Origin: Patescibacteria group bacterium
GTDB taxonomy: Bacteria > Patescibacteriota > Gracilibacteria > Absconditabacterales > Absconditicoccaceae
Assembly: GCA_017992195.1 (NCBI GenBank)
Contig: JAGOPC010000003.1
Coordinates: 5,127-69,126 of the forward strand
Length of the DNA stretch: 64,000 nucleotides
Direction of reading: 5' to 3'
Within the stretch, counting starts at the first letter, position 1, and every line of letters starts with the position of its first letter. Below, in pieces: positions 5,086 through 37,800 of the stretch. The position numbers were made by a program, and so were the translations under genes. Below the pieces are notes generated by a model that did not search any database, was not told the origin of the DNA, and was given only the letters and a program-made list of their open reading frames with translations.

Positions 5086-5207
5086 TTATGTAAAACTTTT
5101 GAATATTGGAATATTCTCCTAAGATGAGATTATATGGACGTTTTTAAAATTATGATTGAAAGATTTGGAGAAGGAGGTATATAGTGAAAATTCGCCCTTC
5201 TAAAAAG

Positions 5208-9206: not shown

Positions 9207-9683
9207 TTACTTAATAAGCTCATGACTCTTGATTTTACCCTCTTCTGAGAAGTGAAAGATGTATTCAAAGTACTCGCCAGCAAGCATCCTCGGCATCCGG
9301 TAGATGTCGTCATCCCGCATGTTTTCGTAGGGGATGTCTTTGATGTCGAACCACTTTAGGATCAATTCATCACTATCTTGAGGATCTCACACGAAATCCT
9401 TCGTTACAAAAACGTGAGCTTCCTGATCTCGATCAGGCTTATTTTCGTAATATAATTTATTGATCCCTAAGTGCGTGAAAGCTTCTTCAGGCAGTTTAAT
9501 GCCTGTCTCTTCTTCAAGCTCTCTTACAACACTTTGTAGAAGTGTTTCACCCTCATTAATCTTTCCTCCAGCTCCGTTTCGTTTGCCAATCGCTGCAGTA
9601 AATTGTCGATTCGTTTTCTTTTTTGCGCCGAGGAGGACCTGTCCTTGCGGATTGAAAAGATAGATGAGTGAGGTTGTCTTCAT
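9207..9683 (-). CDS. Nudix hydrolase, MutT/MTH1-like
   Basis: Perfect Nudix box GGKINEGETLLQSVVRELEEETGI. ORF 9387..9683 reads through TGA 9387-9389 to TAA 9207-9209. Confidence 0.8.
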
Positions 9684-35133: not shown

Positions 35134-35532
35134 TTACGGAGCGATAGACTGGATAACGAAGAAGATAAGACTTACGAACAACCACGCAAGACCGATGAAC
35201 AATAGTCCAACTCCTGCCTGCTTGAGGATCTTGAAACCTGCTTTGTATTTTCCATCGTCACCTGCGGCAGTAACCATCTGGAAACCTCCCCAGAGAAGAA
35301 CGATAAGAGCGATAAGACCAAGTAATCCGAGAAGCCAGTTGATACCATTCTTTATAGTAAGGATCAAACTATCTCCTTGAAGACCTGCCTGTGCACCTGG
35401 AACGTCAGGGTTGTATGTCGAATTTTGTGAACCAAATCCACCCGGAGTAGTACTTACGGCAAATGCACTTCCTACCATTAGCAACATTCCTCCGACACCT
35501 GCAACGATAGCATAACCTGCTTTTTTCAGCAT
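35134..35532 (-). CDS. TrbC/VirB2-like type IV secretion pilin-family protein
   Basis: Signal peptide, then INWLLGLLGLIALIVLLWGGFQMVTAAGDDGKYKAGFKILKQAGVGLLFIGLAW. This is the two-helix pattern of the T4SS-pilin family that is common in Patescibacteria. Confidence 0.5.
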   Translation of the reverse strand: MLKKAGYAIVAGVGGMLLMVGSAFAVSTTPGGFGSQNSTYNPDVPGAQAGLQGDSLILTIKNGINWLLGLLGLIALIVLLWGGFQMVTAAGDDGKYKAGFKILKQAGVGLLFIGLAWLFVSLIFFVIQSIAP

Positions 35533-35652: not shown

Positions 35653-35680
35653 TTGCAACGTAAAGCATAATGCATATACA
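35653..35680 (+). promoter_or_regulatory. Predicted promoter TTGCAA-N16-TATACA, 7 nt before the ATG (leaderless candidate)
   Basis: -35 at 35653-35658, -10 at 35675-35680, ATG at 35688. Confidence 0.4.
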
Positions 35681-35687
35681 CGATAGT

Positions 35688-36089
35688 ATGAAAGAAAAAT
35701 TCCGTTTACGATGTGATCTCAATGCCATAACTGATATCGCTGATATGGACCAGGTTGCAGAGCTCATAGAAAAATTTCCACGCATAGCGCCTCATCATAG
35801 GTATAGCTATCTTTTTTCATGATATCATGATCTTACTCACGGAAAGCTAGACGAGGAAGTATTCTTTACTCTCGGTGACATCTCGTCGACCACACAACTA
35901 TTTTCTTCGCATACCAACAAGGCATGACTCGAAACGCTCTTCGCGATAGAGGATTCGATAACAGACAACACATTATACTTAGTCGAACAGAGCGCTCGGG
36001 CATACTATCTTGGAAAGGTCTGACATGACAGAAGCGGAGCATTCCGTAACGACGTTACTAACCATTGATCACATCTACTCGTTATATAA
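35688..36089 (+). CDS. Hypothetical protein (133 aa)
   Basis: The frame is open only if four TGA codons are read as sense. TAA at 36087-36089. No family recognised. Confidence 0.35.
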
Positions 36090-36135: not shown

Positions 36136-37764
36136 ATGTATCGTCCGTGATGATTTCCGGAGTTTAATCCGAAACAACAAAAAGTATTTGATGGAATATT
36201 AGCAGTTATTACAAAAGTTTTTGAACAACAGAACTTTTCACATATCTGGACGCCAGCCGTGGAACCGGTAGAGATCTTGAAGAAAGGAGGAGATATCAAC
36301 GATAAACAAGTATTTGGTCTGTATGGTCTTGCTCAGTGAGTTGAAGATGTAAAGGACTACGCACTACATTTCGATCTCACCATTCCTCTCGCAAGATATA
36401 TTCTCGATCACAGGAACGATCTGACCTTCCCATTTAAGCGCTATCAGATGCAGCCGGTATGGCGTGGCGAAAGAACAAAGCGTGGAAGATTTAAAGAGTT
36501 CCGGCAGTTCGACGCCGATGTAACCCGGCCGTCCGACTCAAACGTAGGAGTTCGGTACGATGTCGAAACAGTAGCAGTGATGTCAAAGGTGATGGCTGCG
36601 GTCTGTCGTGAGTTCAACGTTACTATTAACACCGTATTGAAGATCTCGCATATTGGTTTGACGAAATCTTTTCTTGCAAGTTTCAAACTTGATGAGGAAA
36701 CAATAAACCAAGTATTAAATCTGCTTGATAATTACTATAAGGCAGACCATGCAACATTCGTTGAAAAGCTTTCAGCCGTTGTCCCAAATAATGTGTGCGA
36801 TGCAATCTACAAACTTATTGAGACCAAGGATATTGATCTTATGAAGGGCTATGAGCGTTATGAAGATATGAACGCTATATTAAATGGTTTGAAAGGCCTC
36901 AACGTGCCATACGAGTACGATATCTGTATCGTCAGAGGACATAACTACTATAGAGGAATGGTCTGCGAGTGGTTCGAAAAAGAGGACGTCTCATTCGGGT
37001 CACTTGCTGCAGGAGGAAGATATGACAATATCACTGACTTCATAGACAAGAAACAATCATTCAGCGGAGTAGGAACGAGCCTCGGAAGATTTATGTACCT
37101 CGCGATCGAAAAGATCGGAGAACTTCTGCCTCAAGAGTCATATATGTTCGTCAACTTTGAAGACACACTGCCTGATGTGTTGGCTCTTTATAATAGATTT
37201 CTCTCTGCAGGAAAGATCGTCGATCTCTACCCAACCGCCGCAAAGATCGGAAAGCAGTTTGAGTATGCCGATAAGAAGGGGGTGACTCATGTAGTTGTAT
37301 TATGAGCGGGAGAGAAAGAGAAATGAGAGTTTAAGATGAAGAATTTAAAGACATGAGATGAAAGAGTTTATACAATAGTTGATTGTTATGGAGCTATTGT
37401 ATTTCATGATCATAAAGTGCTCTTAGTCCAAAATCATCCTGGAGGCTGGGGATTTCCAAAGTGAAAGTGAGAGAAAGGAGAAAGCATTGATGATGCGCTT
37501 CATAGGGAACTCGAAGAGGAGACTGGTATCAAGAAAGTAAAAGCGCTTTCGGATATGACCTACCAGACAAGTTACTTCTATGATAATGGAGAACCAATAT
37601 TCAAAACTATTCAATATAAAGTATTTAACATAGAGAGTGACAAAGTGAAACTACAAACGGAGGAGCTTGCTAAATACGCGTGGGCAACACAAGAGGAGGC
37701 ACTGAGGCTGCTACCTCGTGATATGCATCACCTCATAGCTTCAGTCAAAGAATATTTCAAATAA
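36136..37764 (+). CDS. hisS: Histidyl-tRNA synthetase fused to a C-terminal Nudix hydrolase domain
   Basis: ATG at 36136. MYRP-GG-FPEF..., motif 2 region YQMQPVWRGERTKRGRFKEF(CGG)QFDAD, anticodon-binding end VVL-G-AGEKEK-G-EFKMKNLKT-G-DE. The same frame then continues into GGWGFPK-G-K-G-EKGESIDDALHRELEEETGI, a perfect Nudix box. There is no TAA/TAG before 37762-37764. Confidence 0.85.
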
Positions 37765-37800
37765 AAAAAAGGCCCCGGAGATTCCGGGGCTTCTTGTTTG
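37763..37800. terminator. Bidirectional terminator
   Basis: A8, stem GCCCCGG/CCGGGGC, then a T-rich stretch. It serves hisS and the convergent lipoprotein gene. Confidence 0.7.

Follow-up and report, generated by a model that had tools for sequence, protein, structure and literature searches.

We analysed a 64,000-nucleotide stretch of DNA (hereafter the window; positions 5,127 to 69,126 of the forward strand of contig JAGOPC010000003.1, GenBank assembly GCA_017992195.1) from an uncultured Patescibacteria group bacterium belonging to Absconditabacterales. Our focus is a gene, hisS-nudix, in which a histidyl-tRNA synthetase (HisRS) reading frame continues directly into a Nudix hydrolase domain. 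The gene occupies window positions 36136-37764 on the plus strand, as do all of its parts described below, and runs from an ATG at 36136 to a TAA at 37762-37764. It consists of 542 sense codons plus the stop when TGA is read as glycine and CGG as tryptophan. No in-frame TAA or TAG lies between its ends, and the only in-frame codons that are stops in the standard genetic code are eight TGAs (codons 5, 6, 68, 390, 397, 407, 443, and 445). Its homologues begin with the same MYRPGGFPEF as the window protein. Under TGA = Gly the gene encodes a single HisRS-Nudix polypeptide.

The hisS-nudix gene

Searching the TGA = Gly translation against Pfam recovered all three domains named in an initial annotation of this DNA, which had been made from the sequence alone: tRNA-synt_His (residues 6-316, E = 6.9e-19), HGTP_anticodon (residues 345-410, E = 3.8e-9), and NUDIX (residues 419-526, E = 3.3e-18). 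That annotation had described the hisS frame as complete, and this is borne out by the profile matches and by intact motifs. The NCBIfam hisS profile TIGR00442 spans residues 4-410 (36145-37365), i.e., the class II catalytic domain and the anticodon-binding domain, and is matched over positions 3-402 of its 406 (E = 4.2e-76). The score of 256.5 bits is under the equivalog trusted cut-off of 286.75, as is the case for other Absconditabacteria HisRS, one of which is named "HisS family protein" by the NCBI Prokaryotic Genome Annotation Pipeline. PF13393 and PF03129 both score over their gathering thresholds in the window protein.

The best match of the HisRS part in the Protein Data Bank (PDB) is the Nostoc HisRS 3net (5e-53). 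The motif 2 region, FKRYQMQPVWRGERTKRGRFKEF(W)QFDADV (36433-36522), contains the catalytic arginines, encoded by CGT and AGA, and a CGG at codon 123 that is read as tryptophan. The HisA-type motif IVRGHNYYRGMVCEW and motif 3, GSLAAGGRYDNI (together 36928-37032), are both intact when aligned to solved HisRS structures. Motif 2 (WRGERTKRGRF), the HisA motif IVRGHNYY (RGHNYY), and motif 3/HisB (AAGGRYDNI) all align to their counterparts in 3net and 6nhi. Compared with bacterial class IIa HisS (TIGR00442), the window protein is alike in motifs 1-3, in HisA and HisB, in the HGTP anticodon-binding domain that follows, and in its locus, but has approximately 130 additional C-terminal residues. HisZ, the histidine biosynthesis regulator, was considered and ruled out, as an anticodon-binding domain is present and HisZ profiles score far below hisS.

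HisRS homology stops at approximately residue 410, where the anticodon-binding domain (37168-37365) ends in ...KNLKTGDER, and the first Nudix strand begins at approximately residue 415. The junction, RVYTIVDC (residues 410-417; 37363-37386), is spanned by TGDERVYTIVDCYGAIVFHDHK and lacks a stop, a linker, and any conserved internal start codon, in agreement with the initial description of a frame that continues without TAA, TAG, or linker. The only in-frame ATG or GTG codons near the junction are those of M401, which relatives do not share, and V428, within a strand. Fewer promoter-like matches occurred than expected by chance (4 against 7.7). The Nudix domain covers residues 415-542 (37378-37761) and its Nudix box residues G443-I465 (GKGEKGESIDDALHRELEEETGI; 37462-37530). 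A GC-rich hairpin terminator lies directly 3' of the TAA (37770-37792) and is of a type shared with a related unfused locus, L091. Four TGA codons had initially been placed between the two domains; their reading as sense codons stands, but their position does not, as none lies between the domains. Three TGA codons fall within the final 21 codons of the anticodon-binding domain, and another two (G443 and G445) within the Nudix box.

The genes surrounding hisS-nudix match the hisS neighbourhoods of four independent assemblies, one with a fused gene (L002) and three with unfused genes (L086, L087, and L091). On the upstream side these are genes for RlmN-like, DHH, PBP2, and type IV secretion system (T4SS)-pilin-like proteins and a conserved 139-aa open reading frame (ORF); on the other side are two small minus-strand ORFs, DnaB, two unknown ORFs, and a Mur ligase. 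Because its locus is the same as that of unfused orthologues, we take the window gene to be the housekeeping HisRS. We infer from its profile match, motifs, and locus that the HisRS part charges tRNA-His.

Genetic code

Twelve confidently identified genes in the window contain 72 in-frame TGA codons, and every one of these genes ends in TAA or TAG. A coherent reading of the window requires TGA to be a sense codon. When the TGA codons were aligned to syntenic relatives, the corresponding codon was TGA in 30 cells and GGN in 24, i.e., 54 of approximately 61 listed cells. Within hisS-nudix, the TGA codons 6, 390, and 407 align to conserved glycines of solved HisRS structures, and the first glycine of the Nudix box (G443) is itself encoded by TGA. 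These alignments to TGA, GGN, and conserved glycine support the reading of TGA as glycine in the window, and with it the initial proposal that the two domains are made as one 542-aa protein.

CGG codons of the window align to TGG of syntenic relatives in 18 of 27 cells and CGA codons in nine of ten, whereas CGT, CGC, AGA, and AGG align to TGG in no case. Three CGG codons of hisS-nudix (codons 123, 131, and 140, at 36502, 36526, and 36553; 36502-36555 overall) fall in columns where homologues mix tryptophan and arginine. The initial annotation had translated them as arginine. On the codon alignments they encode tryptophan, as CGG does in this lineage, and the catalytic arginines are unaffected. 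The Absconditabacteria code combines UGA = Gly with a CGA/CGG = Trp reassignment predicted by Codetta (Shulgina and Eddy 2021, PMC8629427). Both reassignments are visible in the codons of the window, which shows no difference from this code.

Most database copies of the fusion (P0007, P0014, and others) were called with TGA as tryptophan. They contain 3-6% tryptophan, even within the Nudix box (FPKWH, EETW), and the tryptophans at conserved glycine positions indicate translation table 4 gene calls. Such calls conceal the canonical Nudix motif from pattern searches; re-translating the L002 gene with translation table 25 yielded a perfect Nudix box. Translations of the window with table 25 still contain false arginines at CGG and CGA codons. 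Right annotation of these genes requires UGA = Gly together with CGR = Trp; standard pipelines truncate or mistranslate them.

The Nudix domain

The initial annotation had noted a perfect Nudix box, and residues G443-I465 are indeed an exact fit to the consensus GX5EX7REUXEEXGU (PF00293, E = 3.3e-18). It had further likened the domain to diadenosine tetraphosphate (Ap4A) hydrolases, an assignment with which both sequence and structure comparisons agree. The best matches of the window domain itself in the PDB are the Ap4A hydrolase of Aquifex (3i7u, 3.3e-11), Thermus Ndx1 (1.4e-9), and Chlamydia CT771 (4.2e-9). A profile built from 25 fused domains ranks CT771 (1.9e-27), Aquifex 3i7u (7e-22), the C. 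elegans hydrolase 1kt9 (1.8e-18), and NUDT2 (8.7e-17) above Ndx1 (8e-13), Dcp2 (1.7e-11), and MutT (7e-6). The nearest standalone homologues, where they are named by their sources, are called bis(5'-nucleosyl)-tetraphosphatase.

Structure models were made with AlphaFold 2 for two relatives, the tail domain of P0121 and full-length P0287. The P0121 domain, which is 61% identical to that of the window, was modelled as a Nudix fold with a predicted local distance difference test score (pLDDT) of 96.4, and the top Foldseek ranks for this model are the Ap4A hydrolases CT771 and those of Aquifex, Plasmodium, C. elegans, and human. In the P0287 model the junction has pLDDT >90 and one continuous strand passes through it.

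Apart from P0121, the fused domains are only 19-37% identical to that of the window. Across all 25 fused sequences the REx2EE of the box, the lysine of FKT (K490), and the glutamate of QxxE/TEE (E510) are nevertheless invariant. The positions of K490 and E510 align with CT771 and the Aquifex enzyme. By analogy with the C. elegans and human enzymes of known structure, this lysine would bind phosphate and the glutamate would serve as the third metal ligand, outside the box. The invariance of catalytic residues across such diverged domains argues for a conserved catalytic function. Together, these comparisons support assignment of the domain to the asymmetrical Ap4A (dinucleoside tetraphosphate, Np4N) hydrolase type represented by NUDT2 and CT771. 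CT771, Aquifex aq_158, the C. elegans hydrolase, and NUDT2 have the fold, the Nudix box, the lysine after the box (FKT/LKT), and the downstream glutamate in common with the window domain, and are of about the same size (approximately 130-150 aa). They differ in being free-standing, whereas the window domain is the C-terminal part of a synthetase and its activity is predicted.

A second Nudix gene is present in the window (9207-9683, minus strand). It encodes a standalone protein of 158 aa with a perfect Nudix box, for which the best PDB matches are the 8-oxo-dGTPases MTH1/NUDT1 (approximately 4e-20). As this separate MTH1/NUDT1-like protein is encoded elsewhere in the window, the fused domain is not the generic nucleotide sanitiser of the cell. 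A role like that of HisE, the phosphoribosyl-ATP pyrophosphatase, was also ruled out for the fused domain, as HisE lies outside the Nudix superfamily and the fused domain belongs to the Ap4A type.

Distribution and mosaic history of the fusion

The initial annotation considered the arrangement unusual. It does appear to be undescribed: our full-text literature searches turned up no account of a HisRS-Nudix fusion or of any other fusion of an aminoacyl-tRNA synthetase (aaRS) with a Nudix domain. Both domain families are well known, and their combination is unremarked in public protein sets. The arrangement is not unique to the window, although it is absent in the closest relatives. Among the 120 best HisRS matches, 23 protein clusters of 496-567 aa contain both PF13393 and PF00293. 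To these can be added P0287, whose gene call is truncated at the N-terminus, and two fragments, P0121 and P0254. At least 24 protein clusters thus carry the HisRS-Nudix fusion, all apparently from TGA-recoded organisms, and the relatives that bear names are Absconditabacterales/SR1. A tblastn scan of genome contigs with the full protein yielded nothing but generic HisRS of other phyla, because the standard code used in it penalises recoded relatives. Two subtypes of the Nudix domain, short and long, each occur on HisRS.

An exhaustive profile search of 1.84 billion representative sequences identified 149 proteins at E <= 1e-30, nearly all of them free-standing and 135-150 aa long. Those fused to HisRS are P0014, P0087, P0039, P0027, and P0287. 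Domains of Ap4A type were also observed fused to LigT/2H phosphoesterase, GNAT acetyltransferase, and HAD hydrolase domains, and as tandem duplicates (P0298, P0357, P0387, and P0253/P0256/P0278). The gene for a standalone Ap4A-type Nudix protein of 145 aa (P0130; L088, 1966-2403) adjoins uvrB in another TGA-recoded organism, and fused and free forms therefore both exist in recoded lineages. In the standard-code locus L084 (372-4432; GCA_039739935.1, JBCLIU010000002.1), the standalone Ap4A-type Nudix gene P0127 overlaps the stop of a gene for a 1209-aa isoleucyl-tRNA synthetase (IleRS). This IleRS has an odd architecture, with a His_Phos_1 (phosphoglycerate-mutase-like) insertion, and its gene lies directly downstream of that of arginyl-tRNA synthetase (ArgRS). 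A general association of Ap4A-type Nudix genes with aaRS genes was not established, as the IleRS/ArgRS arrangement in L084 is one case and three other contexts showed none.

Neighbour-joining trees were built for the HisRS and Nudix parts, and carry no support values. In the HisRS tree the fused proteins fall into approximately nine groups that are interleaved with unfused proteins. In the Nudix tree the fused domains cluster together and are separated from the 70 standalone homologues included. When the window is compared with L091, homology breaks off at approximately 37345 and picks up again at the terminator. The segment in between (37345-37764), comprising the last approximately eight HisRS codons and the Nudix domain, is absent in L091 and closest to L092, a fused relative from an independent data set. 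Upstream of 37345 the window is 79% identical to L091 and 68% identical to L092, whereas in a short stretch from this point identity is 57% to L091 and 70% to L092. At the protein level, the tail and Nudix domain are 63% identical between the window and L092, compared with 54% for the adjacent HisRS part. Among 300 pairs, no other has a Nudix part that clearly exceeds its HisRS part in similarity (the difference averages -19 points, with a standard deviation of 8.7). The window HisRS is nearer to a fused group with the long Nudix subtype (61-71% identity), and its Nudix domain is of the short type of the L092/P0039 clade. The reverse mismatch is seen between P0052 and P0039/50/61, in which the HisRS parts are 72-75% identical and the Nudix parts 30-33%.

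The simplest reading of these patterns is that the tail and Nudix module moves among hisS alleles by recombination and is readily lost; we regard it as dispensable and probably mobile. For the window, we favour gain of the fusion by replacement of the 3' end from another fused lineage. The alternative history is a recent loss of the Nudix module in L091. A possible deletion scar resembling the 3' end of a Nudix coding region is found in L091; the match is too weak to favour either history. The locus offers a case in which a catalytic domain appears to come and go, and to be exchanged, at the 3' terminus of an essential gene in recoded bacteria with reduced genomes.

Proposed function and alternative explanations

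We consider it probable that hisS-nudix encodes a bifunctional enzyme, a HisRS joined to an Np4N hydrolase, with the activity, substrate, and coupling predicted from sequence and structure models. In the mammalian LysRS-Ap4A-NUDT2 axis, synthetase and hydrolase are separate proteins. To our knowledge, the link between Ap4A synthesis and removal has so far been seen only in this form. Like that axis, and among aaRS with appended domains, the window protein would couple an Ap4A-making synthetase with an Ap4A-degrading Nudix enzyme; it differs in that the two are covalently joined and in that the synthetase is HisRS, not LysRS. In the proposed mechanism, the HisRS part would charge tRNA-His, and Ap4A or related Np4N would arise at the synthetase when the aminoacyl-adenylate meets ATP rather than tRNA. 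The Nudix part would cleave these products to ATP (or NTP) and AMP. Fusion would ensure one-to-one co-expression and place the hydrolase beside the source of its substrate, perhaps for local clearance, and the module would be gained, swapped, and lost among the hisS alleles of Absconditabacteria. The general scheme is in line with the literature, in which aaRS are the main source of Ap4A, formed when aminoacyl-adenylate reacts with ATP, and asymmetric cleavage by Nudix Ap4A hydrolases turns it into ATP plus AMP (PMC13627108). A natural covalent HisRS-Ap4A-hydrolase would constitute "Rosetta stone" evidence linking Ap4A synthesis and removal.

Several points weigh against a bifunctional enzyme. 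The window's nearest HisRS relatives are unfused: L091 is 93% identical in amino acid sequence (82% in nucleotide sequence) and P0002-P0004 are 69-72% identical. At the same locus, these genes end 4-10 residues past the HisRS domain and are followed by a terminator, and no Nudix remnant was seen at their loci. As the module is absent from such close relatives, it is not required for aminoacylation, and any coupling between the two parts is dispensable. Fusion alone is a weak sign of a functional link, because this type of Nudix domain is also fused to GNAT, HAD, and LigT domains. The histidine of the common GH(W/R)xFPKG motif is missing in the window subtype (PGGWGFPKG), and the predicted template modelling score of the full-length P0287 model is only 0.57, so that neither the way the domains are oriented to each other nor the closeness of their active sites is predicted with confidence. 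For every member of the fusion family the enzymatic activity is a prediction from sequence, and Nudix sequences are an unreliable guide to substrate specificity. Ndx1, a close family member, also acts on Ap6A. NUDT2 also acts on RNA caps (PMC11253889). The naturally Nudix-less alleles, at 93% identity, offer at the same time an experimental contrast for asking whether Np4N is a by-product or a signal.

The fusion might instead be accidental and have no functional link, with the cell's housekeeping Ap4A/Np4N hydrolase stuck to hisS in streamlined genomes and then persisting or being lost neutrally. We regard this as unlikely. Its patchy occurrence over the HisRS tree, its loss or absence in the closest relatives, the attachment of the same Nudix type to GNAT, HAD, LigT, and itself elsewhere, and the standalone P0130 in another TGA-recoded organism would all be consistent with such an accident. 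An accident accounts less readily for the observation that at least 24 diverged clusters all have HisRS as the partner, with the domain invariably at its C-terminus, and that short and long Nudix subtypes are both found there. The module has also apparently been passed between hisS alleles, a point weakened by the fact that homologous recombination would target hisS anyway.

We consider it improbable that the domain is an RNA 5'-end enzyme similar to RppH or NUDT2, removing pyrophosphate or an Np4 cap, perhaps at G-1 of tRNA-His. The 5'-monophosphate of G-1 is an identity element of tRNA-His for HisRS. Bacterial tRNA-His G-1 is normally encoded in the genome, with its monophosphate left by RNase P, which speaks against a need for such an activity, as does the dispensability of the module in close relatives with the same HisRS. 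Dcp2 and RppH are the next-best structure and sequence neighbours of the domain, but characterised Ap4A hydrolases outscore them by 10-16 orders of magnitude. Placement of the domain directly after the anticodon-binding domain, with a junction that is ordered in the model, would suit an action on tRNA, and NUDT2 decaps Ap4A- and FAD-capped RNA while the 5'-phosphate state of tRNA-His affects HisRS affinity (PMC11253889). A more specific proposal is that the Nudix domain acts in cis on HisRS chemistry, either by clearing the Np4N made by its own synthetase or by trimming a 5'-triphosphate or Np4-capped G-1 of tRNA-His to the monophosphate. This proposal is improbable; if true, it would define a new class of appended aaRS domain, substrate-maturing or by-product-removing, that is spread between hisS alleles by recombination.

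A non-catalytic role, in which the Nudix domain would regulate HisRS simply by binding Ap4A or some other nucleotide, is very improbable. Non-hydrolytic Nudix folds exist, such as that of CF Im25, which binds Ap4A (PMC2425470). Sensor-type Nudix proteins usually have degenerate boxes, whereas the metal-binding and catalytic residues of the box are invariant in the 25 diverged fused sequences. That the fusion is an artefact of chimeric assembly, of a sequencing error (at approximately 37300-37400, as the initial annotation had cautioned), or of termination at a TGA such that no fusion is made is scarcely credible: the window presumably derives from a metagenome assembly and three TGA codons lie shortly before the junction, but both flanks are syntenic with four relatives, the same in-frame junction recurs in the independent L092 and across at least 24 clusters, glycine codons are what TGA aligns to genome-wide, and the Nudix box requires TGA = Gly.

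The initial annotation had also suggested that the hydrolase might act on a mis-activated aminoacyl-adenylate. This is unlikely, as it is not Nudix chemistry: Nudix enzymes act on substrates in which a nucleoside diphosphate is joined to some other moiety, rather than on acyl-monophosphate anhydrides. Hydrolysis of His-AMP was ruled out as a candidate activity on the same ground.

Neighbouring genes

Neither in the window nor in five related loci did searches detect a tRNA gene or an Rfam family, RNase P RNA included; genes for the tRNAs that would decode the reassigned codons are likewise absent from the window. The 139-aa ORF upstream of hisS-nudix (35670-36089, plus strand) ends 46 nt before it and belongs to no Pfam family. 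L086 has an ORF with 74% identity at the same place, L087 and L091 have one as well, and co-transcription of the ORF with hisS is possible. A 132-aa membrane protein that matches T4SS_pilin (PF18895, 1e-12) is encoded between PBP2 and the hisS operon (35134-35532, minus strand), a position that it keeps in L086, L087, and L091.

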